NCBI GenBank assembly: GCA_000494145.1
Contig: AWOE01000011.1
Location: forward strand, 2,011 to 31,490
Source of the DNA: Candidatus Calditenuaceae archaeon JGI OTU-1
GTDB taxonomy: Archaea > Thermoproteota > Nitrososphaeria_A > Caldarchaeales > Calditenuaceae
Direction of reading: 5' to 3'
Length of the DNA: 29,480 nucleotides
In this document: positions 407 to 28,229 of the stretch, piece after piece
Layout of the letters: each line of letters opens with the position of its first letter
How positions within the stretch are numbered: the first letter of the stretch is position 1
Made by a program: the position numbers and the translations under genes
The notes under the pieces: model-generated
Told to the model about the DNA's origin: nothing
What the model saw: only the letters and a program-made list of their open reading frames with translations
Database searches by the model: none

Positions 407-496
407 CGGGCCCGCCGGGACTCGAACCCGGGACCTCCGGCTCTCCGCTCGGGCGATCCGCAGGCCGGCGCCCTATCCATGCTAGGCCACGGGCCC
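407..496 (-). tRNA. tRNA-Arg (anticodon GCG) with a 15-nt intron at the canonical 37/38 position
   Basis: The reverse complement of 408-496 folds as a cloverleaf. Acceptor stem GGGCCCG/CGGGCCC; D stem GCCT/GGGC; anticodon stem CCGGC/GCCGG; loop C-U-GCG-G-[intron]-A; variable loop AGGTC; T stem CCGGG/CCCGG with loop TTCGAGT. The intron is ATCGCCCGAGCGGAG (plus-strand coordinates 443-457). Position 407 would be a G discriminator. No CCA is encoded. Confidence 0.9.
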
Positions 497-3695: not shown

Positions 3696-5492
3696 GTGAA
3701 TGGTGTGAGGTCTGCCGAGGAGATCAGGGCGGTAATAGAGGCGGCGCAGGGGCTCAGGGACCTGACGCTCTTGATCAAGGGCGCTGGTGTCCTGAACGTC
3801 TTCACGGGCGAGATCGAGGACCTCAACATCGGGATCTACCTGGAGAGGGTCGTCTACCTAGGCAGGGAGGAACGGAAAGCGGAGAGGGTGATCGAGGTCC
3901 GCGGCGTAGCTGTCCCCGGCTTCATCGACACCCACCTCCACATCGAGAGCAGCATGGTCACGCCCGTGAGGTTCGCCGAGGCCGTACTACCTCACGGAAC
4001 CACCACCGTCGTCGCGGACCCTCACGAGATAGCGAACGTCCTCGGCAAGGAGGGGGTCAGGATGATGCTCGAGAACTCCAGAGGGCTCCCCATGAAGATC
4101 TACTACTTCATGCCGACGTGCGTCCCAGAATCCGACGCTGTCACAGCCGGTGCCGAGATAACGCCGGAGGACATCGAGGAGGCACTGGGATGGGACGGAA
4201 TAGCGGGGCTCGGCGAGGTTATGGACTTCGAGGCGGTCCTGGCGGGGAAGGAGAAGTTCATGCGCATCCTGGAGCTGGGTTGGAGGAAGAACGCCGTGAT
4301 CGACGGACACTGCGTCCTCCTCTCGGGTGCGAGGCTTGGCGCCTACATCGCTGCCGGCCCAGAGGCCGACCATGAGAACTTCACGGTCGATTCGATGCTC
4401 GAGAAGCTGAGGCGCGGCATGTACGTAAAGCTCAGGGGACCCTACATCCTGGACTCGAAGAGGTTCGTTGAGGCGCTGAGGTCAGTACCTGACGGATGGG
4501 ACAGGGTCCTGTTCGTGACCGACGACGTCATGCCCGACACGCTTCTCGAGAAGGGACACATGGACTTCGTGATCAGGTCGATGATCGAGGCGGGGATGGA
4601 CGAGGTCGAGGCGATCAGGAGCGCAACCCTTCGGCCGGCGGAGCACATGAGGATGCGGGAGCTCGGCGCGATCGCACCGGGCAGGCTGGCGGACGTCGTG
4701 GTCCTCAAGGACCTCAGGAGGGTCGAGGTCGACCTCGTGGTCTCGAAAGGCGTCCCCGTCGCGAGGGAGGGACGGATGATCGTCGAGCTCGACGGCAGGC
4801 CCTTCGACAGGAGGGCCTACGGCACGGTGAAGGTGAGGGAGCTGAGGCCTGAGGACTTCGAGTTCGTCGCCCCCATCGATAACGGCAGGATGAGGGTGAG
4901 GGTCGTGGACTTCCCGAGGCCCGAGGAGGTCCAGGGCGACCTCGCGTGGGCCTTCCTCCAGATGATCGTGACCAAGGCGTCGGAGGCCGTCGTCGAGGTG
5001 AGGGGTCGCAGGCCTGTCCTGGGGGAGGTGGCGCTGATGAAGGTGATAGAGCGTCACGGGAAGCACGGACAGAGCGGGATCGGCTTCGTGAGGAACATGC
5101 TGAGGAGGGGCGCTGTGGCGACGACGGTAGCCCACGACTCGCACAACCTAGCGGTGGTAGGGACCGACCCCGTGGACATGTACACCGCTGCGAAAGAGGT
5201 GGTGAAGGCCGGTGGAGGGATGGCTGCGGCTCTCAACGGAGAGGTTCTGGCTTTGATCGAGCTCCCTGTCGCAGGCCTGATGTCCGAGGAGCCGGTGGAG
5301 GTTATGGCGGGGAAGATGAAGGCCTTCAGGGAGGCCCTGAGGAAGCTCGATGCCATAGATCATCCGTACATGCCCCTCGTCTCGCTCATGACCCTCTCCG
5401 TGATCCCGGCCTACAGGATCACCGATAAGGGACTCTTCGACGTCGTGAACCAGCGCTTCCTCGACCCAGTCATCGAGGCATTCCCGTCATGA
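3696..5492 (+). CDS. ade: Adenine deaminase (amidohydrolase superfamily, Ade type)
   Basis: PGFIDTHLHIESSMVTP is the metal-binding HxH motif. Also present are GTTTVVADPHEIANV, a DGH segment and the C-terminal adenine-deaminase domain (ATTVAHDSHNLAVVG). The ORF-track start at 3540 overlaps rps4, so I use in-frame GTG 3696 (VNGVRSAEEIR). GTG 3705 is an alternative. Confidence 0.85.
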   Translation: MNGVRSAEEIRAVIEAAQGLRDLTLLIKGAGVLNVFTGEIEDLNIGIYLERVVYLGREERKAERVIEVRGVAVPGFIDTHLHIESSMVTPVRFAEAVLPHGTTTVVADPHEIANVLGKEGVRMMLENSRGLPMKIYYFMPTCVPESDAVTAGAEITPEDIEEALGWDGIAGLGEVMDFEAVLAGKEKFMRILELGWRKNAVIDGHCVLLSGARLGAYIAAGPEADHENFTVDSMLEKLRRGMYVKLRGPYILDSKRFVEALRSVPDGWDRVLFVTDDVMPDTLLEKGHMDFVIRSMIEAGMDEVEAIRSATLRPAEHMRMRELGAIAPGRLADVVVLKDLRRVEVDLVVSKGVPVAREGRMIVELDGRPFDRRAYGTVKVRELRPEDFEFVAPIDNGRMRVRVVDFPRPEEVQGDLAWAFLQMIVTKASEAVVEVRGRRPVLGEVALMKVIERHGKHGQSGIGFVRNMLRRGAVATTVAHDSHNLAVVGTDPVDMYTAAKEVVKAGGGMAAALNGEVLALIELPVAGLMSEEPVEVMAGKMKAFREALRKLDAIDHPYMPLVSLMTLSVIPAYRITDKGLFDVVNQRFLDPVIEAFPS

Positions 5493-5514
5493 ACCGGACT
5501 TCGGTGAAGGTCTG

Positions 5515-6912
5515 GTGACGACCTACGACCTGATCCTGAGGAACTGCAAAGCCGTGGACGTCTCGGGGACGCAGGACTGCGAGATTGCGGTCGACGGCGG
5601 AAAGATCGTCAAGCTCGCGAAGGTCATAGAGGACGGAGCGAACAGGATCATCGACTGCACCGGGAAGCTGGTCATCCCCGGAGCTATAGACGGCCACGTC
5701 CACTTCGAGATGGAGTACGGGCCGGGGATCAGGACCGCTGACGACTTCAGGACCGGGACCGAGAGCGCGGCGGCCGGCGGAGTGACGACGGTGATCGACT
5801 TCGTAACGCCGGTCAGGGGCCAGCCCCTCTCGGATGCCTTCGAGGAGAGGCTGAGGGCGGCGCAGGGGAAGGTCCTCGTCGACTTCGGGCTCCACGTCTG
5901 CGTCCTCGAGGCGAACGCCCAGAGGATCTCCGAACTGAGGCGGCTCGTCGAGGAGAGGGGCGTCGCATCGGTCAAGGTCTTCACGGCCTACAGGTCAAGG
6001 GGTCTGATGATAGACGACGGGTCCCTGATCAGGCTCTCGAGGGAGCTGGCTGCGATGGACGTGCTGATGCTCTGCCACTGCGAGAACGAGGAGATGGTGG
6101 CGAGGGCCACCGAGGAGCTCGCCTTCGAGGGGAGGACCGACGTCGCCCACTACGAGTCCAGCAGGCCCGATTACGCCGAGGCGGAGGCCGTGAACAGGAT
6201 CGGCTTCATCTCTGCGGTCACGGGCGTTGAGTTCCTCGTCGTCCACATCTCCTCGGCCGCTGCGCTCTCCTCCCTCAGGACCTTGAAGAGGTCGGGCGTC
6301 AGGGCGACGGGCGAGACATGTCCCCACTACCTCGTCTTCACGAAGGAGGTCTACAGGAGTGAGAGGGGGCCCCTGTACGTGATGGCACCTCCCCTGAGGA
6401 CCGCGCTGGACAAGGAGGCCCTCTGGAGAGGGATATCCGACGGAACGATCGACGTCGTCGGGAGCGACCACGCTCCCTACCTCGCGGTCCACAAGTTCAG
6501 GTCGAGGGACTTCAGGGAGATACCCGGCGGAGTTCAGGGGACCGAGGTGATCGTGCCGCTGCTCTTCTCGGAGGGCGTCAGGAGGGGCCTGATCGGTCTG
6601 GAGAGGCTGGTCGAGCTGACCTCCTACAACCCGGCGAGGATTTACGGCCTTTCGCACAGGAAGGGGAGAATCGCCGTCGGTTTCGACGCGGACATCGTCG
6701 TCATCGACCCCGAGAAGAGGGTGAGGCTCGGAAGGGAAACGCTCCACAGCTCCCTTGACCACTCGATCTACGAGGGCGTCGAGGTCACCGGCTACCCCGT
6801 CCTCACGGTGGCTCGTGGGGAGGTGGTTGCCGAGGACGGCCAGGTCACCGGAAGGCCGGGAAGGGGCGAGTACCTCCACAGGAGTAGGCAGAAGTCCAAT
6901 CAGCTGAGGTAG
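5515..6912 (+). CDS. Dihydropyrimidinase / D-hydantoinase family cyclic amidohydrolase
   Basis: PGAIDGHVHFEM provides the HxH motif. Also present are AAAGGVTTVIDF, KVFTAY (the carboxylated-lysine region), VHISS, and GSDHAP near the C-terminal third. GTG start at 5515 with GGTGA 7 nt upstream, 22 nt after the ade stop. Confidence 0.85.
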   Translation: MTTYDLILRNCKAVDVSGTQDCEIAVDGGKIVKLAKVIEDGANRIIDCTGKLVIPGAIDGHVHFEMEYGPGIRTADDFRTGTESAAAGGVTTVIDFVTPVRGQPLSDAFEERLRAAQGKVLVDFGLHVCVLEANAQRISELRRLVEERGVASVKVFTAYRSRGLMIDDGSLIRLSRELAAMDVLMLCHCENEEMVARATEELAFEGRTDVAHYESSRPDYAEAEAVNRIGFISAVTGVEFLVVHISSAAALSSLRTLKRSGVRATGETCPHYLVFTKEVYRSERGPLYVMAPPLRTALDKEALWRGISDGTIDVVGSDHAPYLAVHKFRSRDFREIPGGVQGTEVIVPLLFSEGVRRGLIGLERLVELTSYNPARIYGLSHRKGRIAVGFDADIVVIDPEKRVRLGRETLHSSLDHSIYEGVEVTGYPVLTVARGEVVAEDGQVTGRPGRGEYLHRSRQKSNQLR

Positions 6913-8177
6913 CGCTTAAGCTCCTCCACCTCCGGTTTTATCAGAGGTATCTCGCCGACGCTCCCCAGGAGCTTCTCGACCTCCTTCAGGCCCGATCCGG
7001 TGACCAGCACGACGACCCTGTCCGATCTGTCGATAAAGCCCTCGTCGAGGAGCCTCCTCAGCGCCGCGAGGCCCACGGCACCGGAAGGCTCCGCGAAGAC
7101 GCCGGCTTTGGACGCGAGGACCCTGACCGACTCCATTATCTCTTCGTCAGGGACCGCCACGCCTCTGCCTCCAGTCCTCTTGACGCCCTCGATCGCCGCG
7201 TCACCGTCCCAGGGGAAGGGGTCCAGAAGTCCAGACGCGACGGACCTGGGGTTCCTCTCCGGCTCTATCTCCTCGAAAGGCGTCCCCGAGTTGATGGCCC
7301 TCACGAGTTGCTGGTTCCCCTCCGGCTGGACCGGGATCAGCATCGGCAGGTCCTCCTCCCGCAAGAGGCCCAGCTCCGTCAGGTCCCTGAGGCCCTTCCA
7401 GATCCCGGTGATGAAGCACCCTGAACCGGTCGGGACGAGGATCGCGTCGGGCGACTCCCACCCCAGCTGCTCCAGGACCTCGTAGCTGACGGTCTTGGGG
7501 CCCTCGACCTGGTATGGGTTGAAGGGGCCGAAGCTCGGGCAGGGGTACCATCCGAAGGCCCTGACGGCCTTGACCATGAGGTCGACGGTCGGGTCCCTAC
7601 CTTCCTCGACCGACCTCACCCTGAAGAGCTTGGCGCCGAAGGTGACCAGCTGGGCCGCCTTCCCCATCGAGACGTCCTCAGGTACGAAGGCGTAGCACGA
7701 GATGCCGAGGGACGCGCAGTAGGCCGCGAGGGAGGAGGCAGCGTTGCCGCTGGAAGCGGTGACCGCCACTTTCTTCCCCAACTCCGCCGCCTTGGCCACG
7801 CCCACCGCCATCGCCCTGTCCTTGAAGGAGCCGGTCGGGTTGCGGGTCTCGTCCTTGAGGTAGACCGCCTCCGTCCCGAGGAACTCGTTGAGCCTGCTGG
7901 AGCGGAGCATGGGCGTCCCACCCTCCCGGATCGGCGACGCGAACTCCATCGGTGCCGGCATCAGCTCGTGGTACCGCCAGACGCCCATCTCCCTCGGCCT
8001 CGACTCGATGACCCGCCTGCTGAGGACCTCCCTGATCGCATCGTAGTCGTAGATCACGTCGAGCCTTCCGAGGTCCATCCTGCCGCACATCACCGGGCCT
8101 TCCTCCGGCCTGTACCTCGTCCCGCACCTGGAGCAGACCAGCTCCACCACGTAGGACCTCGACCTCGGACCGGGCAT
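6900..8177 (-). CDS. thrC: Threonine synthase family PLP enzyme (ThrC-like, N-terminal zinc ribbon)
   Basis: NPTGSFKDRAM carries the PLP lysine, ASSGNAASSLAAY is present, and CSRCGTRY...C is an N-terminal Cys-ribbon as in archaeal ThrC. The start ATG 8177 is 4 nt after the stop of the upstream SsnA-like gene. Operon context makes a non-threonine role possible. Confidence 0.8.
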   Translation of the reverse strand: MPGPRSRSYVVELVCSRCGTRYRPEEGPVMCGRMDLGRLDVIYDYDAIREVLSRRVIESRPREMGVWRYHELMPAPMEFASPIREGGTPMLRSSRLNEFLGTEAVYLKDETRNPTGSFKDRAMAVGVAKAAELGKKVAVTASSGNAASSLAAYCASLGISCYAFVPEDVSMGKAAQLVTFGAKLFRVRSVEEGRDPTVDLMVKAVRAFGWYPCPSFGPFNPYQVEGPKTVSYEVLEQLGWESPDAILVPTGSGCFITGIWKGLRDLTELGLLREEDLPMLIPVQPEGNQQLVRAINSGTPFEEIEPERNPRSVASGLLDPFPWDGDAAIEGVKRTGGRGVAVPDEEIMESVRVLASKAGVFAEPSGAVGLAALRRLLDEGFIDRSDRVVVLVTGSGLKEVEKLLGSVGEIPLIKPEVEELKRYLS

Positions 8178-8181
8178 CGGA

Positions 8182-9564
8182 TCACCTTCCGAGGCGCAGC
8201 GGCTCCACCGCCTCCGGTGGGGAGGCCCCGAGCCGATCCCAGAGCCTCTCCACGGTCCTCAAAATCCTCCTCTCGGCCTCCTCTACGTCCAGCGTGAGGA
8301 GCATCCCGTCCTCGACGATCTGCCTGCCGCCGACGATCACGTGCCTCACGTCGGCCCCTCCCATGCCGTTGACGATGTACGCGTAAGGGTCACCGGTGGT
8401 CGGGGTGGCCATCAACCTCGGCCTCAGGACCACTACGTCGGCCAGCTTCCCCGGAGCGATCGAGCCGTAGTCCTTCATGCCGTAGGCCCTTGCCGCCTTG
8501 ACCGTCACCATCTCGAGGACCTGCTTCGGGCTCAGGACGGTGGGGTTCCTCCTGCTGACCCTGTGGATCAGGAACGCCGACCTCACGTTCTCGAACATGT
8601 CGAAGACGTAGCCGTCGTTGCCGAGGCAGACGTTGACGCCAGCACCAAGCATCTCCGGGACCGGAGCTACGCCCACAGCGTTCAGCATGTTGCTCATGGG
8701 GTTGTGGGCGACGCTGGCCCCGTGCCTCGCAACGATCGCTATCTCCTTGTCGTTGAGGTGGACGCAGTGGGCGAGGACAGCCCTCCTGCTCAGCGCTCCG
8801 ACCTCCTCCAACCTCTCAACCGTCCTCTTCCCGTACCGCTCGATGTTGTGGTATACGTCGTTAGGCCCCTCGGAGACGTGGATCGTTATCGGGCACCCGA
8901 ACCTCTCGGAGATCTCGACGCCCTTCCTGACGATCTCGTCGGTCACCGTGAAGGAGGCGTGGACGCTGACCATTCCGTAGGCGTTGCCCTGCTGGCTCCT
9001 CAGGTACCTCTCGTTCTCCCTGAGGCCCCTCTCGCCCTCCTCCCGGGACCTCCTCTCGGTCGCCTCGAAGGCTATGAACCCGCGGATCCCGACCTCGTTC
9101 ACGGCCCTCGCTATCGCGTCGAGGGACCCTTCGATGCCGTTAGGAGCTGAGTAGGTGTCGGCGAAGCAGGTGGTGCCGGTGAGGGCCATCTCGATGCATG
9201 CGGCGAGGGCTGTGGCGTAGGCGTCTTCGTTCGTGAGCTTCTCGTCGAGGGGCCACCAGACGCGCTGGAGGATCTGCAGGAAGTCGCTCGGAGGCCTGAT
9301 GTTCAGCAAAGCCCCCCTCAAAGCTATCCCGTAGAGGTGCGTGTGGCCGCAGAACAGACCGGGCAGGACGAACCCTCCCCTCGCGTCTATCACCCTGTCC
9401 GGCTTCCCCTCCCTTTCCACCTCACCGGCCCTCCCCACCTTGGCGATCCGATCTCCCTCGATCAGAACGGCACCGTCCCTGATGATGCCGAGAGCGTCGT
9501 CCATCGTCACCACTGTTCCGCCTTTGACGAGGACCCTCTCCTCTGCCAGCCCCGACCACCTCAC
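8182..9564 (-). CDS. ssnA: SsnA-like amidohydrolase (chlorohydrolase / aminohydrolase family)
   Basis: LPGLFCGHTHLYG provides HxH. The block DFLQILQRVWWPLDEKLTNED aligns, as I recall it, with E. coli SsnA DFISTLKNLWWRLDRALDEES. IHVSEG, HCVHL, SNM and GNDG motifs follow. The GTG start at 9564 overlaps the TGA of the upstream LLM gene (GTGA). Confidence 0.8.
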   Translation of the reverse strand: MRWSGLAEERVLVKGGTVVTMDDALGIIRDGAVLIEGDRIAKVGRAGEVEREGKPDRVIDARGGFVLPGLFCGHTHLYGIALRGALLNIRPPSDFLQILQRVWWPLDEKLTNEDAYATALAACIEMALTGTTCFADTYSAPNGIEGSLDAIARAVNEVGIRGFIAFEATERRSREEGERGLRENERYLRSQQGNAYGMVSVHASFTVTDEIVRKGVEISERFGCPITIHVSEGPNDVYHNIERYGKRTVERLEEVGALSRRAVLAHCVHLNDKEIAIVARHGASVAHNPMSNMLNAVGVAPVPEMLGAGVNVCLGNDGYVFDMFENVRSAFLIHRVSRRNPTVLSPKQVLEMVTVKAARAYGMKDYGSIAPGKLADVVVLRPRLMATPTTGDPYAYIVNGMGGADVRHVIVGGRQIVEDGMLLTLDVEEAERRILRTVERLWDRLGASPPEAVEPLRLGR

Positions 9565-10568
9565 ACGGAGCTGAGGGCCTTTATCGCGTACTCGAGGTCG
9601 CCGCTGAGCAAAAGGATCAGGGGCGCTGTGCAGCCGTGCTTCATGTACTCCATGATCTTCGCCTTGACCTCCGTCGGCGTGCCCGACGCTGTGATCATCC
9701 TGACCACGTCGTCAGGGACGATCTCCATCGCCCTCTCGATCCCTCCGGGCTTCGCGGGCCATCCTCCCATCGCCTTCTGGACCTCCTCGATCAGGTCCTC
9801 GCTGACGCCGCTCGCCTTCATGATGTGCGGCTGCTGGCCGAGGGTCATCGTCACGTGCTTCTTCGCCAGCTTTATCGCCTTCTCCCCGTCCTCGTCGATC
9901 GAGCACGCGATCAGCTGCGGCCTGTCGACGTCCTCGAGCCTCCTCCCTGCCCTCCTGGCTCCCTTCTCGATGTGCTCGAGGGCCTTGTCGTTGTAGGCCG
10001 GCGATACGAGGTAGTTCAGCAGCACCCCGTCAGCTATCTCGCCCGCCAGCTCCATCATCTTGAAGCCTGTGGCGCCTATGTAGATGGGGATGTTCCTCGG
10101 GACCTGACCCTTCCCGTGGAGGACGTCGAGCCTGATGCCCCTGGCCTTCACGAACTTCCCCTCGAAGTTGACCTCCTCCATCCTGAGGAGCCTCCTGATC
10201 ACCTCCACGTACTCCCTCATGCACTGCAGCGGCTCCTTCCTCTCTATGCCCACCTTCCACGCCAGCGGGTCCCACCACGCTCCCAGCCCCAGCATCACCC
10301 TGTTGTCGGCCAGCTCGTCGAGCGTGGCGAAGGTCTGGGCGATCAGCGCCGCGTTCCTCGTCCATGTGTTGATGACCCCGGCCCCGACCTTGATCCTCTC
10401 GGTGACCGTCGCAATCGCGGTCATGGGGACGATCGCGTCCCTCGAGAGCCTCGACTCGGCGACCCAGGCGGACTCGAAACCGTGACGCTCCGCCAGCTGA
10501 GCGTACCTCACCATGTCCCTCACGTGCATGTCCTGAAGGTAGAGACCGAGCCTGGGGATCGACGTCAC
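9561..10568 (-). CDS. Luciferase-like (LLM) flavin/F420-dependent oxidoreductase, Mer-like
   Basis: IPIYIGATGFKMMELAGEIADGVLLN and CSIDEDGEKA align with the methylene-H4MPT reductase (Mer) pattern IPIYMGAQGP..AGE.SDG.L.N / CSIDED as I recall it. I chose GTG 10568 because an A/T box (reverse TTATTTT, 10591-10598) lies about 27 nt upstream. ATG 10601 is an alternative. The ORF-track start 10709 would run into the divergent gene. Confidence 0.85.
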   Translation of the reverse strand: MTSIPRLGLYLQDMHVRDMVRYAQLAERHGFESAWVAESRLSRDAIVPMTAIATVTERIKVGAGVINTWTRNAALIAQTFATLDELADNRVMLGLGAWWDPLAWKVGIERKEPLQCMREYVEVIRRLLRMEEVNFEGKFVKARGIRLDVLHGKGQVPRNIPIYIGATGFKMMELAGEIADGVLLNYLVSPAYNDKALEHIEKGARRAGRRLEDVDRPQLIACSIDEDGEKAIKLAKKHVTMTLGQQPHIMKASGVSEDLIEEVQKAMGGWPAKPGGIERAMEIVPDDVVRMITASGTPTEVKAKIMEYMKHGCTAPLILLLSGDLEYAIKALSSV

Positions 10569-10673
10569 ATGATATAGTGCGAGTCGTAACAAAATAAGCA
10601 TGATCCGGAACTGGTTCAGGGGTTGCCGATGGGTCCGGAAACGATTTATCCCCCCGAAGGATCGATTTGCCGA

Positions 10674-10904
10674 ATGCCGATTCAAGCCTACGTCCTGATC
10701 AGGACCCATCCGGGGAAGGCGAGGAACGTTGCCGAAGCGATAGCCAAGATCGCAGGATGCAGATCGGTCTGCGCGGTGACAGGGAGGTACGACGTGATCG
10801 CCCTCCTCGAGGCAGAGGACCTAAAGGGTCTCGGAGACCTGATACTCCAGAAGGTCCACACGATCGACGGCGTCGAGAGGACCGAGACGGCCGTCGTGGT
10901 CTGA
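10674..10904 (+). CDS. Stand-alone Lrp/AsnC ligand-binding (RAM) domain protein, no HTH
   Basis: MPIQAYVLIRTHPGKARNVAEAIAKIAGCRSVCAVTGRYDVIALLEAEDLKGLGDLILQKVHTIDGVERTETAVVV has the beta-alpha-beta-beta-alpha-beta RAM pattern. At 76 aa it has no room for a DNA-binding domain. It is divergent from the LLM-SsnA-ThrC operon. Confidence 0.75.
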   Translation: MPIQAYVLIRTHPGKARNVAEAIAKIAGCRSVCAVTGRYDVIALLEAEDLKGLGDLILQKVHTIDGVERTETAVVV

Positions 10905-10972
10905 GCAGGAATCAGAAACCAACCAGTGCGATCCATTTTTATTAGTTGCGGATTGAAACAAAATCAGTGGGC

Positions 10973-12514
10973 ATGGAACCTCCCCGAAGACCGCTCATAT
11001 CGATGAGGGGGATAACCAAGAGGTTCCCGGGCGGGGTGATCGCGAACGATCACGTCGACTTCGACCTGTATCCGGGGGAGGTCCACGCGCTTCTCGGAGA
11101 GAACGGAGCGGGTAAGACGACGCTGATGAACATACTGTACGGGCTGTACACCAAGGACGAGGGGGAGGTCTACGTCGACGGGAAAAGGGTCGAGATCAGG
11201 TCTCCGAAGGACGCGATCAGGCTCGGGATAGGCATGGTCCACCAGCAGTTCAAGCTCATCCCGCGCCACACGGTCCTCGAGAACGTCGTCCTCGGCCTGA
11301 GGGAGGCCGGCTTCGTCCTCAACTACAGGAGCCTCAGGGAGATGCTCGTCTCGACCATCAGGGAGTACGGCTGGAACCTCGACCCGGACGCGTACGTATG
11401 GCAGCTGACGGCCTCCCAGAAGCAGCAGGTCGAGATCCTGAAGCTCCTCGTGAGGAAGGCGCGGGTGCTGATACTGGACGAGCCGACGTCTATCCTGACG
11501 CCGCAGGAGACTACGCAGCTCTTCGAGAGCATCCGGTCGATGGCCGCGCAGGGAATGGGGGTCGTCCTGGTCACGCACAAGCTCGAGGAGGTGATGCGGG
11601 TCTGCGACAGGGTGACGGTGATGAGAAGAGGAAGGGTCGTTGCGGTGAGGAGGAGGGAGGAGCTGAACGCGGAGGAGCTGGTGACGCTGATGGTAGGCCG
11701 GAGCATAGACCAGACGTACCGCGTCACCGTTCGACCACGGGATGAGAGGGTCCTCGAGGTGAGGAACCTGAGGGTCCTCGACGACAGGGGGGCCGTGGCG
11801 GTCAAGGACGTGAGCTTCCACGTCATGAAGGGAGAGGTCTTCGGGATTGCGGGGGTCTCCGGGAACGGGCAGGACGAGCTCCTCGAGGCAATTTACGGCC
11901 TCAGGAAGGCGGTCTCTGGCAAAGTCTATCTCAACGGAAGGGACGTCACGAACCTCCCGACGTGGGAGCTGGTGAAGCAGGGTGTGGCGATGATCGTGCC
12001 AGAGGCGGTGAAGGGGGTCGGTCTCGGCCTCACGGTCGCCGAGAACCTCCTGCTGAAGTGCTACCGTTACGAGCCCTTCTCGAGGTGGGGCATCCTGAAG
12101 AGGAAGCTGATGGAGGAGTCGGCGAAGGAGCTGGTCGAGCAGCTCAAGATCGTCACGAGGTCCGTCACCGCCAGGGCCTCCACCCTCTCCGGCGGGAACC
12201 TCCAACGCCTCATCATCGCTCGGGAGCTCTTCGCGAACCCTAGCCGTCGGCTCCCGGTCCTGCTGCTCGCATCGCACCCCACTAAAGGCCTCGACGTGGC
12301 CGCCACCGACTACGTGAGGAGGCTGATACTCGGCGTGAGGGACTCGGGCGCTGGGGTCATCCTCCTCTCGGACGACCTCGAGGAGCTGATAGCGCTCAGC
12401 GACAGGATAGGCGTGATGTACAAGGGCGAACTGCTCGCGGTGCTGGAGAAGGAGCGGGCGGAGATCGAGACGATAGGCATGCTGATGATGGGCGTAAGGC
12501 CTGGCGGCCCCTAG
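10973..12514 (+). CDS. ABC transporter ATP-binding protein with duplicated ATPase domains (CUT2 family, nucleoside/Bmp-type motifs)
   Basis: Walker A is GENGAGKTT, GIGMVHQQFKL is typical of NupO/RnsA-like ATPases, and Walker B is LILDEPT. The second half carries GVSGNGQ, LSGGNLQR and LLSDDLEE. I use ATG 10973 (MEPPRRPLISMRGITKRFPG) rather than the TTG at 10946. An A/T box lies at 10933-10941. Confidence 0.9.
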   Translation: MEPPRRPLISMRGITKRFPGGVIANDHVDFDLYPGEVHALLGENGAGKTTLMNILYGLYTKDEGEVYVDGKRVEIRSPKDAIRLGIGMVHQQFKLIPRHTVLENVVLGLREAGFVLNYRSLREMLVSTIREYGWNLDPDAYVWQLTASQKQQVEILKLLVRKARVLILDEPTSILTPQETTQLFESIRSMAAQGMGVVLVTHKLEEVMRVCDRVTVMRRGRVVAVRRREELNAEELVTLMVGRSIDQTYRVTVRPRDERVLEVRNLRVLDDRGAVAVKDVSFHVMKGEVFGIAGVSGNGQDELLEAIYGLRKAVSGKVYLNGRDVTNLPTWELVKQGVAMIVPEAVKGVGLGLTVAENLLLKCYRYEPFSRWGILKRKLMEESAKELVEQLKIVTRSVTARASTLSGGNLQRLIIARELFANPSRRLPVLLLASHPTKGLDVAATDYVRRLILGVRDSGAGVILLSDDLEELIALSDRIGVMYKGELLAVLEKERAEIETIGMLMMGVRPGGP

Positions 12515-13563
12515 CCCATCGTCATCACCATCACGGCCTTCTGGACGTGGAGCCTGTTCTCGGCCTGCTCGAAGTAGAGCGAGTACCTCGGGTTGTCGAT
12601 GACGTCGTCGGTGACCTCCTGCCCCCTGTCAGCGGGACCGCAGTGCATGTACTTCCCGTTGTTGGTCAGGTCCATCAGCTCCTGCGTGCATATCCAGTGC
12701 TTGAACTTGTTCTGGTACTCGACCGCTCCCTCCTTGTCGACCTTGCTGTTGTACGGTGGGAAGAAGCCCTTGGGCGACCAGGCCTTCGGGTAGACGAAGT
12801 CCGCGCCCTCGAAGGCCTCCTTCATGTCGTGAACGATCTCGAAGCTTCCCCCGTACCTGTCGGCGTTCTCTCTGGCCGCCCTTATCACGTGGTCCTCGAG
12901 CTCGAAGCCCGGCGGGTGGGCGAGGACGACGTCCATCCCGAACATCGTCCCGATCAGGACGCACGACTGCGGCACCGCGAGGGGCTTCAGCCCTCCGGAG
13001 TAGGCGTAGGAGACGACGAACTTCTTCCCCTTTGGGTTAGGGGTCACATCGGTTATCGCCATGATGTCGGCCAGCGCCTGGAACGGATGGTAGATGTCGT
13101 CCTCCATGTTCAGGACCGGGACCGTGCTCCACCTGGCGAACTCCTGGATCACCCTGTGGCCGCGGCCGATGTGCCACTTGGCCGCGTCACCGTAGATCCT
13201 GATGGCGATCGCGTCGCCGTACCTGCTCAGGACCCTCGCGACGTCCGCAATCGACTCGGTCTGGTATGGTATCATGTCCTCCGGCAAGGTCGGCGTGTAG
13301 ACGTCCTGAGGGCTGAGGAAGTGGGCGTGGCCGCCTAGCTGGAAGATCCCCGCCTCGAAGGAGTTCCTCGTCCTTAGGCTTCTATTGTAGAAGAGCATGA
13401 AGAGCGTCTTGCCCTGCAGGTACGGCGTCGGGATCCTCGCCCTGAACTTGCTCCTGAGGTCCCTCGCGGCCTCCAGGACCTGCTCGATCTCCTCCCGTGT
13501 GAAGTCGTTTGTGTTCAGGAAATGCCTGCCCCTCAGGAGCCCCGCGTATTTGGGGAGATCCAT
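12511..13563 (-). CDS. ygeW: YgeW-type (knotted) carbamoyltransferase
   Basis: SLRTR is the carbamoyl-phosphate motif and HPFQALAD is present. The long block KGKKFVVSYAYSGGLKPLAVPQSCVLIGTMFGMDVVLAHPPGFEL...GGSFEIVHDMKEAFEGADFVYPKAWSP parallels E. coli YgeW as I recall it (KGKKIAMTWAYSPSYGKPLSVPQG...FGMDVTLAHPEGYDL...GGSFRQVTSMEEAFKDADIVYPKSWAP). MHCGPA matches MHCLPA. An A/T box at 13589-13598 lies about 31 nt upstream of ATG 13563. Confidence 0.85.
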   Translation of the reverse strand: MDLPKYAGLLRGRHFLNTNDFTREEIEQVLEAARDLRSKFRARIPTPYLQGKTLFMLFYNRSLRTRNSFEAGIFQLGGHAHFLSPQDVYTPTLPEDMIPYQTESIADVARVLSRYGDAIAIRIYGDAAKWHIGRGHRVIQEFARWSTVPVLNMEDDIYHPFQALADIMAITDVTPNPKGKKFVVSYAYSGGLKPLAVPQSCVLIGTMFGMDVVLAHPPGFELEDHVIRAARENADRYGGSFEIVHDMKEAFEGADFVYPKAWSPKGFFPPYNSKVDKEGAVEYQNKFKHWICTQELMDLTNNGKYMHCGPADRGQEVTDDVIDNPRYSLYFEQAENRLHVQKAVMVMTMG

Positions 13564-25637: not shown

Positions 25638-26240
25638 ATGGGAGGACCCGCCGGCAGCTACGGGATGCTCTCCGGCAGAGAACCGGCAAGGACCGTCGCG
25701 CTGATCGTCGTCCTCTCAGTCCTCGGTCTGGTGCTGGCGCCTTTCTTCTGGTTCCCGTTCCTGGGCACGAGGGCCTTCCCGGGTCAGCACCTCGTCAACG
25801 TCCTCGCCGGCATACTGCTCGGGCCTGTCAGGTCGATACCGGTGCCTGTCATCGTCGGGACGGTGAGGCTGATGCTCGGGATAGGAACGGTCTTCGCGTA
25901 TCCGGGCGGCATACCCGGGACGATCATGGTGGGCCTCTTCCAGAGGTTCGTCACCGGCAGGTTCAGGGACCACAGGGTCAGGTACCTCTCGGCCTTCGCG
26001 GAGCCGATAGGGACCGTCCTGATCGGTGGCACGCTCTCGCTCCTCATCATCGGGCCGCTGCTGAACGTGCCCTCGATCGTCGACCTCCTCTCAGGGGAGA
26101 CCGTCATCGCGGCCCTGCTCACCTTCTGGGCCGGATGGGCGGTGAGCTCCGTCATCGGCGCCTCGATAGGCTACGTCGTAACGATGGTCCTGAGCAGGGC
26201 CCTCCCCGACCTCTTTCCGGGACCAGGGAGGCAGAAGTGA
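25638..26240 (+). CDS. thiW: ECF-type S component ThiW (thiazole/thiamine-precursor transporter)
   Basis: It is polytopic and hydrophobic. [18 protein letters not shown] and [10 protein letters not shown] match the FPGQH...AFPG motifs I recall for ThiW. It lies directly upstream of thiDN. ATG 25665 (MLSGREP) is an alternative start. Confidence 0.7.
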
Positions 26241-26896
26241 TGGACGTGGCGACGCTGGACCTCGAGGTCGATCGGCTGTTGGGGAAGAAGACCCTGATCG
26301 TCGGCGAGGCGGGCACCGGGAAGTCCCACCTCCTCGCCCGGATCCTCGAGAAGATGGTGGAGGTCCTCGATCCAAAAGAGATCACCCTGATAGACATGGC
26401 GCCTTTCAGGTTCTCGGGGATCGGCGGGAAGCTGAGGGACCTGACGGACTCTGTGGGTCGTGTCAGGTACCTGACCGATGACGGGATAGCGCCACCGAGG
26501 CTTCTCGGCAGGAACGCAGCCGAGGTCCTGAGGCTCGCGGAGCGCAACGCATCGCTCATCGGTCCTCTCCTGAACGAGTACCTCAAGAGGCCCACCCGTG
26601 TCCTCCTGGTCAACGACGTCACGGTCTACCTCCACGCCGGCGATCCGTCGTTGCTGGGGAGGGTCATGGAGGCTGCGGAGACGTTCGTTGCGACCTGTTA
26701 CGAGGGGAGGCTCCTGAGCGACGACAGGGGCTCCGGGATCACGGAAATAGAGAGGAAGAGGCTGGCCGAGCTCAAGGGGAGGGTCGACAACGTGCTGGTG
26801 CTGAGGGAACCGTTTATTGTCCGTCGAGATGGGATTGGAACCGGCGGAGGTGGGGCAGGTGAGGATACCGAGGGCCCTCACGGTAGCAGGTTCTGA
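26240..26896 (+). CDS. P-loop NTPase of unknown function, embedded in the thiamine cluster
   Basis: Walker A is [12 protein letters not shown] Walker B-like motif is [12 protein letters not shown] 26240-26242 overlaps the thiW TGA (26238-26240) as TGATG. The 3' end overlaps the thiDN start by 38 nt. The ORF-track start 26135 lies inside thiW. Confidence 0.7.
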
Positions 26897-28229
26897 CTCA
26901 GGAGGGGGTGCAGGAATCCAGGCGGACCTGAAGACCTTCGCAGCCCTCGGCGTCCACGGCATGTCGGCGATCACATCGATCACAGCTCAGAACACTCACT
27001 CGGTCACGAGGGTTGTGGACCTCGACCCCGAGATGGTGGTGGAGCAGATCAGGGTCTGCGTCGAGGACATCGGCGTCGACGCGGTCAAGACCGGGATGCT
27101 TCACACGACGGAGATCATCAGGGCCGTTGCGGACGAGCTCAAAAAGGTCGTTGCACCGAAGGTAGTAGACCCTGTGATGGTAGCGAAGAGCGGTGCGCCT
27201 CTTCTCAGGGACGACGCCATCAGAACCTTGGTTGAGGAGCTGATACCGATTGCAGATGTGGTGACGCCGAACGCGAGGGAGGCCGAGAGGTTGACCGGCA
27301 TACCTGTGAAGGGACTTGAGGACCAGAAGAAGGCTGCGAAGGAGATCGCCGAGCTGGGCGCAAGGGCTGTAATCGTAAAGGGAGGTCACGTTGACGGCCC
27401 TGTGGTCCGAGACGTTCTCTACTTCAACGGAGAGTATGTAGTTCTCGAGTCGGAGAGAATACAGACGAAGAACACCCACGGCACCGGTTGCACCTTCGCC
27501 TCGGCGATAGCTGCACACCTCGCCCACGGAAGGGAGGTCGTGGAGGCGGTAAGGAGGGCAAAGGAGTTCGTAACAGACGCGATAAGGTACGGGCTCGACC
27601 TGGGGAAGGGAGCAGGGCCGGTCAATCCGGTGTGGGGAGCGCTGAGGAAGGCGTGGCTTTACGAGGCGATGGAGAACGTCAGCGTTGCGACCGAGATCCT
27701 CGAGCGGGTTGAGGGGATCGGCTGGATCTGCCCCGAGTCGATGATCAACATAGCGGAGGTGGTGCCCTTCGGCTCCTCGATCGGCGACGTCGTCAGCATA
27801 CCGGGGAGAATAGCGAACGTCGGAGGCAGGTTGAGGCCCTCGTCGTGTCCCAGGCCGGGAGGCTCGAAGCACGTGGCCTCGGCTGTCCTCGTCGCCCATT
27901 CCCTCGACTGGAGGATCAGGGCTGCGATGAACGTCAGGTACGATGAGCGGATACTGGAGTCCGCGTCGAGGCTCGGCATGAGCGTCTCGAGCTACGACAG
28001 GTCCAAAGAACCTCCTGAGATCAAGAACGTGGAGGGTATGACCATCAGGTGGGGTGTTCGGGAGGCATTTAACCAGGCCGGTAAAGTGACGGACATAGTC
28101 TACCACCTGGGAGACTTCGGAAAAGAACCCATGATAACCATATTTGGCGAGAATGCTGTCGACGTCGTAAAAAAGCTACTCCGCATACTTAACAAGGAAG
28201 ATCAACCGGATCCAGAAAGGCATATCTGA
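26859..28229 (+). CDS. thiDN: Bifunctional ThiDN: HMP/HMP-P kinase (ThiD) fused to thiamine-phosphate synthase ThiN
   Basis: ThiD motifs are [27 protein letters not shown] and [13 protein letters not shown]. The C-terminal ThiN domain shows [14 protein letters not shown] ... [14 protein letters not shown] 26859 has GGAGGTG (26846-26852) 6 nt upstream. ORF-track start 26817 and ATG 26829 are alternatives. Confidence 0.9.

Follow-up and report, generated by a model that had tools for sequence, protein, structure and literature searches.

The anaerobic route of purine-ring degradation was worked out in 2025, in bacteria only. In this pathway urate becomes 2,8-dioxopurine through XdhD, and the ring is then reduced by YgfK or by UacX, a homologue of PydA. 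Ring opening takes two enzymes, SsnA for the first ring and HyuA for the second, and gives 2,3-diureidopropionate, from which YgeW or UacY and then YgeY take off the ureido groups before YgeX yields pyruvate (Li et al. 2025, PMC12507026). YgeW together with carbamate kinase makes ATP, and in some strains the carbamate kinase is encoded elsewhere in the genome (Liu et al. 2025, bioRxiv 10.1101/2025.04.24.650524). The pathway genes of Escherichia coli K-12 (ygeW-ygeX-ygeY-hyuA-yqeA and ygfK-ssnA-ygfM-xdhD) are split into two separable operons, and Clostridium carries variants. In SsnA neighbourhoods of Chloroflexota an F420 luciferase-family protein replaces YgfK/UacX, as reported, for bacteria only, from a sequence-similarity network (PMC12507026). 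Here we analysed a 29,480-nucleotide (29.5-kb) stretch of contig AWOE01000011.1 from the archaeon Candidatus Calditenuaceae archaeon JGI OTU-1 (hereafter the window), and in particular the gene cluster at positions 3696-13563. With moderate confidence, we favour the interpretation that this segment encodes most of an archaeal, F420-type variant of reductive (2,8-dioxopurine/urate-type) purine-ring degradation, each step being assigned from family membership and conserved context.

For archaea, oxidative purine degradation has been proposed in Haloferax volcanii, with uricase, PucM, allantoinase and xanthine dehydrogenase, Xdh (Pfeiffer and Dyall-Smith 2021, PMC8305020). That cluster is likewise a genome-deduced archaeal purine catabolic cluster that includes an Xdh-family enzyme, but it follows the oxidative uricase route and its post-urate enzymes are entirely different. 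Full-text literature searches found no SsnA-type or 2,8-dioxopurine-type pathway described in archaea, and genome papers on Calditenuis and Caldarchaeales mention neither xanthine dehydrogenase nor purine catabolism. An earlier reading of this DNA from the letters alone (the sequence-only reading) had held the pathway to be undescribed for archaea; this stands for the reductive route but not for purine degradation as a whole, given the Haloferax proposal.

The window has a G+C content of about 63% and carries archaeal housekeeping genes, i.e. those for ribosomal protein S4, PheRS alpha and beta, DnaG and ThiDN. Its proteins have their closest relatives in Candidatus Calditenuis (Caldarchaeales, formerly Aigarchaeota), and a Calditenuis metagenome-assembled genome (MAG; locus L001) has the same gene order with protein identities of 82-97%. 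Profile and open reading frame (ORF) analysis recovered all of the relevant genes that the sequence-only reading had listed between 3696 and 13563, where the cluster reads as follows:

3696-5492, plus strand: adenine deaminase-like amidohydrolase, 598 amino acids
5515-6912, plus strand: D-hydantoinase/dihydropyrimidinase of the HyuA family, 465 amino acids
6900-8177, minus strand: ThrC-like (ThrC-derived) pyridoxal phosphate (PLP) enzyme, 425 amino acids
8182-9564, minus strand: SsnA-like amidohydrolase of an SsnA sister clade, 460 amino acids
9561-10565, minus strand: Mer-like luciferase-like (LLM) oxidoreductase, predicted to be F420-dependent, 334 amino acids from a GTG at 10565
10674-10904, plus strand: stand-alone RAM (Lrp/AsnC ligand-binding) domain protein, 76 amino acids
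10946-12514, plus strand: two-domain ABC ATPase of the BMP/CUT2 type, 522 amino acids
12511-13563, minus strand: carbamoyltransferase of an N-acyl-ornithine transcarbamylase-like clade, 350 amino acids

The start of the adenine deaminase-like gene was set at the GTG at 3696, because the long ORF from 3540 overlaps the S4 gene, and that of the LLM gene was placed by the conserved N-terminus SIPRLGLYLQD. The adenine deaminase-like and hydantoinase genes are separated by 22 nt on the same strand. On the other strand the LLM and SsnA-like genes share 4 nt, the stop codon of the former overlapping the start of the latter, and the ThrC-like gene, which ends this run, follows the SsnA-like gene after 4 nt. 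These spacings suggest two convergent operons, one for the adenine deaminase-like enzyme and hydantoinase and one for LLM, SsnA-like and ThrC-like enzymes, while the RAM and ABC ATPase genes form a third unit that diverges from the LLM operon.

To place the cluster we ran a pattern scan with an alignment of the amidohydrolase over one genome per GTDB species, which returned 194 relatives; the best 80 of these 194 loci, with up to 10 kb of flank each, made up the synteny set. The window proteins were mapped onto it by tblastn, all ORFs of the loci were clustered, and neighbour families were named by Pfam and NCBIfam. Of these best 80 loci 79 are archaeal (Caldarchaeales, Nitrososphaerales, Bathyarchaeia, Hadarchaeota, Conexivisphaerales, Baldrarchaeota and two Asgard MAGs) and one belongs to Methylomirabilota. 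The main arrangements, with arrowheads for gene direction, are:

Calditenuaceae (L001, L002, L005, L051, L087): the gene order of the window is kept
Caldarchaeum: Bmp substrate-binding protein/ABC ATPase/two permeases<, adenine deaminase-like<, LLM>, SsnA-like>, Xdh FAD subunit>, Xdh 2Fe2S subunit>, Xdh molybdenum subunit>, second carbamoyltransferase>, carbamate kinase<, ThrC-like<, V4R<, CysK<, carbamoyltransferase<
Nitrososphaerales-like: Xdh>, second carbamoyltransferase>, other genes, LLM>, SsnA-like>, hydantoinase<, deaminase-like paralogue<, carbamate kinase<, purine phosphoribosyltransferase>
Hadarchaeota (17 of 17 loci): ADP-forming acetyl-CoA synthetase>, hydantoinase<, histone<, SsnA-like>, PreA/PydA-like>, often followed by a second amidohydrolase
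Bathyarchaeia, in most loci: XdhC<, MocA<, hydantoinase<, SsnA-like>

The co-location of the window genes is unlikely to be due to chance: archaeal genomes both close and distant also have this gene set, in several different arrangements. A scatter of these genes in the relatives, which would have spoken against the clustering that the sequence-only reading proposed, was looked for and not seen: the same genes cluster across the relatives. The carbamoyltransferase and/or the ThrC-like gene lie beside the SsnA-like gene in at least five arrangements (the window and Calditenuaceae, Caldarchaeum, L014, L034/L035, L037 and L085), and in 57 of 81 loci the SsnA-like gene has a hydantoinase-family gene no more than 10 kb away.

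The argument that assigns a role to the LLM protein comes from the same loci. In 27 loci of Caldarchaeales and Nitrososphaerales the LLM gene, at 63-95% identity, adjoins the SsnA-like one, while all 17 Hadarchaeota loci have a hydantoinase together with a PreA/PydA-like reductase (DHO_dh plus two Fer4 domains) and no LLM; the two reductases are never found together in one locus. The SsnA-like gene thus has a predicted ring reductase as neighbour in both groups, and often a HyuA-family gene as well. We take the LLM protein to be the likely ring reductase for the SsnA-like hydrolase mainly because this archaeal swap of partners parallels the swap in bacteria. The case of Chloroflexota is similar in that an SsnA-family amidohydrolase occurs with a PF00296 protein in place of YgfK/UacX, but it has been reported for bacteria only, as a statistic of neighbourhoods.

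Here and below, families were assigned by Pfam and NCBIfam profile scores against the curated cut-offs and by sequence matches to the PDB. The LLM protein matches Bac_luciferase (240 bits), its top 15 NCBIfam matches are F420-type LLM models, with FMN-type models at 61 or less, and its best PDB matches are Mer structures (169 bits to PDB 8QQ8). It does not reach the cut-offs for Mer itself (TIGR03555, 205 against 348.7; NF002619, 203 against 276). Mer is the closest characterised LLM protein, and performs the F420H2-dependent reduction of an N-heterocycle, as is proposed for the window protein; the latter differs in scoring far below the Mer cut-off, in having a host that is no methanogen and in the overlap of its gene with that of the amidohydrolase. 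F420 biosynthesis has been reported for Calditenuis aerorheumensis (PMC4681859).

The best NCBIfam model for the SsnA-like amidohydrolase is that of SsnA (NF005540), but its score of 353.3 is below the cut-off of 444, as is its score on the other SsnA model (TIGR03314, 326 against 455.5). The next-best models are chlorohydrolase (299) and 5'-deoxyadenosine deaminase (247), the protein is 30% identical to E. coli SsnA, and its best PDB match is a methylthioadenosine/S-adenosylhomocysteine (MTA/SAH) deaminase, no SsnA entry being among the PDB matches. In a neighbour-joining tree the clade of the window protein and true SsnA were monophyletic in 100 of 100 bootstraps, to the exclusion of the MtaD/GuaD-like paralogues from the same loci, and the window clade was recovered on its own in 83 of 100. 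Members of the clade keep the HxH..HxxE..D residues of the deaminase type. Hadarchaeota also encode a second amidohydrolase, which is the best match to E. coli SsnA and passes both models (NF005540, 581; TIGR03314, 544), and which adjoins a YgfK orthologue (40% identity over 97% of the YgfK length). Because Hadarchaeota hold this separate true SsnA beside YgfK, the window protein is, on family scores and tree position, a sister-clade paralogue of SsnA and not SsnA proper; the SsnA-like call of the sequence-only reading is thus right as to the closest family and wrong as to membership. By the same assignments, bona fide SsnA-YgfK pairs, hence the bacterial type of pathway, exist in archaea, in the Hadarchaeota.

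These Hadarchaeal true SsnA/YgfK genes were seen at 4087-5538 of L052, at 6284-7609 and 7653-10949 of L061, and in other Hadarchaeota loci. The pair lies directly beside the set of SsnA-sister, PreA-like and hydantoinase genes, giving two parallel reductase-hydrolase modules per locus, and these double-module loci are flanked by genes for ADP-forming acetyl-CoA synthetase.

The hydantoinase passes the D-hydantoinase equivalog model (TIGR02033, 422 against a cut-off of 393) and shares 35% identity with E. coli HyuA across 98% of the HyuA length, in agreement with the dihydropyrimidinase/hydantoinase call made from the sequence alone. Its neighbour, the adenine deaminase-like enzyme, has Amidohydro_1 and Adenine_deam_C domains (the latter at 165.9 bits, cut-off 27) and falls just under the adenine deaminase model (TIGR01178, 449.3 against 472.5); orthologues with 60-90% identity are found in the same cluster of Calditenuaceae and Pelearchaeum. 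In Caldarchaeum the adenine deaminase-like gene upstream of LLM (L009, L018, L020 and others) encodes a protein just 38-42% identical to the window enzyme, and most Caldarchaeum loci with this divergent paralogue have no hydantoinase within 10 kb. The paralogue might have a different role, possibly as a second ring-opening hydrolase.

The carbamoyltransferase has OTCace_N and OTCace domains. It passes the model for N-acetylornithine carbamoyltransferase (AOTCase; NF003384) by 4 bits, with 292 against a cut-off of 288, and scores 239 on that for ornithine carbamoyltransferase (OTCase), while YgeW is the sixth-best model and its cut-offs are far from being reached (NF005538, 160 against 453; TIGR03316, 153 against 500). 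PDB matches give the same order (AOTCase 230 bits, Pyrococcus furiosus OTCase 204, YgeW (3Q98) 144), and identity to E. coli YgeW is 33%. The sequence-only call of a YgeW-type enzyme is therefore not upheld, as the best models and structures are N-acetylornithine/ornithine carbamoyltransferases. The likeness to AOTCase (Xanthomonas ArgF', PDB 3KZC and related entries), the best profile and PDB match, extends to STRTR-like, HPxQ and HC(L/G)P motifs, the C-terminal AENRLHVQKA and a similar loop after K(S/A)W (FF..). However, at position 92, located through the PDB entries for the E92A/S/V mutants, the glutamate of AOTCase is a threonine (window QTES aligned with DTEEH); the role of E92 in specificity has been described (bioRxiv 10.1101/2024.10.14.618325). 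The neighbours also differ, being a ThrC-like gene, carbamate kinase and a second carbamoyltransferase, and no arginine-biosynthesis genes were found in five distinct carbamoyltransferase-anchored contexts or in the SsnA-anchored loci. Because E92 is replaced by threonine and arginine-biosynthesis neighbours are missing, the protein appears AOTCase-like, yet no straightforward AOTCase. The possibility that ureidoglycine carbamoyltransferase (Barba et al. 2013) is the nearest relative was rejected, since that enzyme belongs to a pseudo-ATCase clade and is not OTC/AOTC-like.

Homologues of the carbamoyltransferase from Nitrososphaerota, Nezhaarchaeales, Hadarchaeota and Desulfurococcales have 73-87% identity, while the amidohydrolase of the same clusters is far less conserved (48-67%); this high conservation could reflect strong constraint or recent transfer among thermophiles. 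The five distinct contexts (six loci, L082 and L083 being near-duplicates) are:

Desulfurococcales: Bmp-type ABC transporter (BmpABC)<, ThrC-like>, ClC<, second carbamoyltransferase>, carbamoyltransferase>, carbamate kinase>, Lrp
Hadarchaeaceae: carbamoyltransferase>, ThrC-like<
L085: BmpABC<, amidohydrolase>, CysK>, ThrC-like>, second carbamoyltransferase<, carbamate kinase>, carbamoyltransferase>
JGI contig: carbamoyltransferase>, ThrC-like<
Calditenuaceae L087: carbamoyltransferase>, ABC ATPase<, RAM<

A PALP protein of about 415 amino acids, assigned to the ThrC-like family by size and domain only, lies less than 5 kb from the carbamoyltransferase in four of the five contexts and 6 kb off in the fifth (L087). 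Carbamate kinase adjoins the carbamoyltransferase in Desulfurococcales and L085 and is in the same cluster in Caldarchaeum, so that in relatives it stands beside the first or the second carbamoyltransferase; the archaeal kinase passes its model (TIGR00746, 413 against a cut-off of 358) and is 51% identical to E. coli YqeA.

The ThrC-like enzyme matches PALP (251 bits), carries an N-terminal Cys-X2-Cys motif, passes the threonine synthase model TIGR00260 (186.4 against 167.1) and falls just short of NF006050 (302.9 against 303). It shares with threonine synthase the fold-type II PLP architecture, the lysine motif NPTGSFKDR and an overall homology of 187 bits. In five solved threonine synthases (PDB 2ZSJ, 2D1F, 6CGQ, 1UIM and 1E5X) the motifs ASTG[ND]T, N-S-x-N-x-x-R-x-E-G-Q-K-T and GN-x-GN are conserved in all, and their counterparts in the ThrC-like protein are ASSGNAA, GPFNPYQVEGPKT and PTGSGC. 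Across 18 members of the ThrC-like family ASSGNAA is invariant and the other two are nearly so. With these three motifs replaced, a Cys-X2-Cys segment added at its N-terminus and catabolic genes as neighbours, the enzyme is likely to have a substrate other than that of threonine synthase. We take the three motifs to supply the ligands of the O-phosphohomoserine phosphate, and because they are altered the substrate is probably not phosphorylated. As a pointer to a real threonine synthase, the aspartate kinase gene at 944-2416 of the window was set aside, since this adjacency is found just in Calditenuis L001 and L002 and was not seen in other Calditenuaceae.

The ABC ATPase has two ABC_tran domains, and its best NCBIfam model is a 'putative B6 ABC' transporter (449 against 670), followed by sugar CUT2 ATPases. 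The nucleoside-type ATPase of the sequence-only reading is thus supported at the level of the BMP/CUT2 family, while the best single model is a putative B6 transporter scored below its cut-off. Orthologues with 53-58% identity in other Caldarchaeales are part of complete operons with a Bmp substrate-binding protein and two permeases beside the LLM and SsnA-like genes; the window has no Bmp binding protein or permease gene, and in Calditenuaceae the ATPase is an orphan. The RAM protein (PF01037, 57.7 bits) is encoded upstream of the ATPase, and a 76-amino-acid PF01037 gene holds the same position in L087.

Taken together, the cluster would work as follows. The adenine deaminase-like enzyme would feed adenine into the oxopurine pool, and an Xdh-family molybdenum hydroxylase encoded outside the window would set the oxidation pattern of the purine. 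The Mer-like LLM protein would use F420H2 to dearomatise the ring, i.e. do the job of YgfK/UacX, after which the SsnA-sister amidohydrolase, from the overlapping downstream gene, would open the first ring and the D-hydantoinase the second, giving a di-ureido C3 acid. The AOTCase-like carbamoyltransferase is proposed to phosphorolyse a ureido group to carbamoyl phosphate, which would yield ATP where carbamate kinase is present. In relatives the second carbamoyltransferase could replace the hydrolase YgeY, the two transferases phosphorolysing both ureido groups. The AOTCase-like pocket, which accepts an N-acylated diamino acid with a terminal ureido group, could on chemical reasoning fit 2,3-diureidopropionate. 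By beta-elimination the ThrC-derived enzyme may then release pyruvate and ammonia from the 2,3-diamino or ureido-amino acid that is left, in place of YgeX and perhaps YgeY. The RAM protein would serve in sensing and the BMP-type ATPase in uptake.

What the cluster has in common with the bacterial 2,8-dioxopurine pathway is a reductase coupled to an amidohydrolase of the SsnA type, a hydantoinase of the HyuA family, a carbamoyltransferase of the ATC/OTC superfamily and, as last enzyme, a fold-type II PLP protein; archaeal relatives also encode carbamate kinase and, together with XdhC and MocA, a hydroxylase of the Xdh family. The differences are that the reductase of the window is an F420-type LLM protein and not YgfK/UacX, that its amidohydrolase is an SsnA-sister paralogue, its carbamoyltransferase AOTCase-like and not YgeW, and a ThrC-derived enzyme stands for YgeX; that archaeal clusters have no M20 peptidase YgeY, relatives having the second carbamoyltransferase instead; and that the window is without selenium-associated genes, hydroxylase and carbamate kinase, in a host that is archaeal and thermophilic. 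When the E. coli proteins were compared with all locus ORFs, no YgeY-like M20 peptidase was found to be conserved in the archaeal loci, while the second carbamoyltransferase is. In the 29.5-kb window, tblastn with the E. coli queries gave no match to XdhD, YgfK, YgfM, YgeY or YqeA, and YgeX had a weak blastp match only, of 43 bits, to the ThrC-like protein, which bears out the absences listed in the sequence-only reading. Tblastn with E. coli and archaeal Xdh, carbamate kinase, Bmp, permease, MocA, XdhC and PydA-like queries found no additional gene in the window, and an Rfam scan found one tRNA in the window and no riboswitch or other RNA within the cluster. The overall picture given by that reading, an F420-flavoured ygeW/ssnA/hyuA-like purine neighbourhood with non-orthologous replacements, thus keeps its support from conserved context and the partner swap, but has to be amended in that the carbamoyltransferase is not YgeW, the amidohydrolase is a paralogue of SsnA, and hydroxylase and carbamate kinase are absent.

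Of the other Caldarchaeales loci, 9 of 15 have Xdh genes in the cluster, as have 6 of 9 Nitrososphaerales-like loci; in Caldarchaeum these genes lie directly downstream of the SsnA-like gene. Several observations weigh against a purine pathway in the window. The window is without molybdenum hydroxylase, carbamate kinase, permease and binding protein by tblastn over its 29.5 kb, and without a second carbamoyltransferase; in the Calditenuaceae and Pelearchaeum loci no Xdh was found within 10 kb, and no carbamate kinase was found in reach in the window or in either group. The amidohydrolase, LLM, adenine deaminase and carbamoyltransferase are outside or marginally inside the curated cut-offs of their families, and no member of the SsnA-sister, LLM, carbamoyltransferase or ThrC-like clades has a characterised substrate. 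The carbamoyltransferase and ThrC-like pair also occurs alone, far from any SsnA-like gene, and carbamate kinase can run biosynthetically in some hyperthermophiles.

As to Xdh in Calditenuis as a whole, none of the best 120 matches to the large subunit of Benthortus Xdh was named Calditenuis, though one may still be encoded elsewhere in the genome. Calditenuis fumarioli has been reported to have a Mo/W transporter and no tungsten AOR, an indirect hint that a molybdoenzyme exists. In L087 (12939-14637) MoeA and MobB genes are inserted between RAM and LLM of an otherwise identical cluster, which hints that a molybdoenzyme is part of the pathway though none is encoded nearby. In L032, L034 and L035 (Baldrarchaeota and Nitrososphaeria MAGs) several gene pairs for tungsten-type AOR and a 4Fe-4S subunit flank the SsnA-like genes and there is no Xdh, so an AOR-family enzyme may have the hydroxylase role in these loci; ThrC-like and second carbamoyltransferase genes are also present in L034 and L035.

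The same logic of reducing a ring, opening it and removing ureido groups could serve another N-heterocycle, e.g. in reductive pyrimidine degradation or in the breakdown of pterins, hydantoins or N-carbamoyl amino acids, a version that we regard as unlikely but worth serious consideration. For pyrimidines, the role of dihydropyrimidine dehydrogenase would fall to LLM or the PydA-like protein, that of dihydropyrimidinase to the hydantoinase and that of a cytosine-type deaminase to the SsnA-like protein, while the carbamoyltransferase would take over from beta-ureidopropionase. Such a function is consistent with the pass of the hydantoinase on a dihydropyrimidinase equivalog model, with the PreA/PydA-like (DHO_dh and two Fer4) partner reductase in Hadarchaeota, with the reduction of a pterin derivative by Mer, the nearest characterised relative of the LLM protein, with the deaminase-type residues retained in an uncharacterised SsnA-sister clade and with the lack of xanthine dehydrogenase in the window. 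However, two different ring-opening amidohydrolases beside one reductase fit a bicyclic substrate, and the neighbours in relatives point to purines, i.e. three-subunit Xdh with XdhC and MocA, adenine deaminase, purine phosphoribosyltransferase and guanine-deaminase-like paralogues. To our knowledge beta-alanine, the product of the pyrimidine route, is not a type of substrate for a fold-type II ThrC-like enzyme. The PydA-like reductase is in itself no sign of pyrimidines, as the bacterial urate pathway uses the PydA homologue UacX (PMC12507026).

The cluster might also combine two unrelated neighbouring modules, one for a heterocycle (adenine deaminase-like, hydantoinase, LLM, SsnA-like) and one of carbamoyltransferase and ThrC-like enzyme (with CysK and carbamate kinase in relatives) that acts on another carbamoylated amino acid, e.g. 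of the arginine/citrulline type or a thermophile metabolite. The pair does stand alone in Hadarchaeaceae and the JGI contig, with no SsnA-like, LLM or hydantoinase gene within 10 kb, and the Desulfurococcales group of BmpABC, ThrC-like, both carbamoyltransferases, carbamate kinase and Lrp is also without these three; the 73-87% identity of the carbamoyltransferase across phyla suggests a central role, and it does pass the AOTCase model, by 4 bits. We nevertheless consider this quite unlikely, since the two genes recur, singly or together, beside SsnA-like genes in at least five arrangements, the ThrC-like gene of Calditenuaceae follows 4 nt behind the SsnA-like gene on the same strand, no carbamoyltransferase context holds arginine-biosynthesis genes, E92 of AOTCase is a threonine, and the E. 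coli pathway is likewise split into two separable operons. A chance grouping of housekeeping genes (a salvage adenine deaminase, a dihydroorotase-like protein, threonine synthase, an MTA/5'-deoxyadenosine deaminase, ornithine carbamoyltransferase and an orphan ABC ATPase) would agree with automatic models, which name threonine synthase (TIGR00260, 186 against 167) and ornithine/N-acetylornithine carbamoyltransferase, with the MTA/SAH deaminase as best PDB match of the amidohydrolase and with the aspartate kinase gene at 944-2416. It is very improbable, as the gene set is conserved over orders and phyla despite rearrangement, the motifs conserved in ThrC are altered, and the kinase adjacency is confined to Calditenuis L001 and L002; the amidohydrolase has SsnA as its best profile and sister group, and no SsnA structure was among the PDB matches for the MTA/SAH deaminase to outrank.

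If the purine interpretation is followed beyond the window, a reductive, ATP-yielding purine fermentation built from interchangeable parts, with the Calditenuaceae as a sub-case, is possibly widespread in uncultured archaea, a suggestion that we make tentatively. The lineages concerned may be Caldarchaeales, Nitrososphaerales other than ammonia-oxidising archaea, Bathyarchaeia, Hadarchaeota and some Asgard and Baldrarchaeota. Among the parts, the reductase may be an F420-LLM, a PreA-like protein or YgfK, and the hydrolase may come from an SsnA sister clade that had so far gone unrecognised. Two AOTCase-like carbamoyltransferases may allow up to two ATP via carbamate kinase instead of one, and a lyase derived from threonine synthase may replace YgeX and YgeY. 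In Calditenuaceae, with no nearby Xdh, the LLM and SsnA-like enzymes might act directly on hypoxanthine from the adjacent adenine deaminase, which would be a molybdenum-independent entry to purine ring degradation. The overall logic is already known from bacteria and the F420/LLM swap from Chloroflexota; the broad distribution in archaea, the sister clade of SsnA, the pair of AOTCase-like carbamoyltransferases and the ThrC-derived terminal enzyme appear to be new. Were the pathway real, nucleobases would be a fermentable source of carbon, nitrogen and ATP for abundant uncultured archaea of hot springs, sediments and soils, and F420 would gain a new physiological role. It would also give functions to four large clades, of which three are now named amidohydrolase, threonine synthase and ornithine carbamoyltransferase and the fourth LLM oxidoreductase, and would offer thermostable enzymes for the removal of urate and purines. 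The automatic annotation of the altered 'threonine synthase' and of the AOTCase-like transferase is probably wrong.

Other features of the window lie outside the cluster. The tRNA found by Rfam (407-496, minus strand, 90 nt, 48.4 bits) was left unassigned as to type by ARAGORN, with a four-base anticodon 'cgga', and probably is an archaeal tRNA that contains an intron. Positions 15512-17009, between the OsmC gene and PheRS, form an island of low G+C (0.43-0.50 against about 0.63) that codes for a 346-amino-acid AAA_15/AAA_21 ATPase, matched by PADLOC to OLD/Gabija GajA/AriA/AbiL-like ATPases, and a 149-amino-acid protein without family match. In Calditenuis fumarioli (L002) OsmC adjoins PheRS with no insert, and the two genes probably make up a defence-type island of recent acquisition. 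A thiamine-related run at 25638-28229 comprises a ThiW transporter, a P-loop protein with weak HerA/AAA matches and a fused ThiD-ThiN; Calditenuis aerorheumensis has been reported to be a thiamine auxotroph (PMC4681859).

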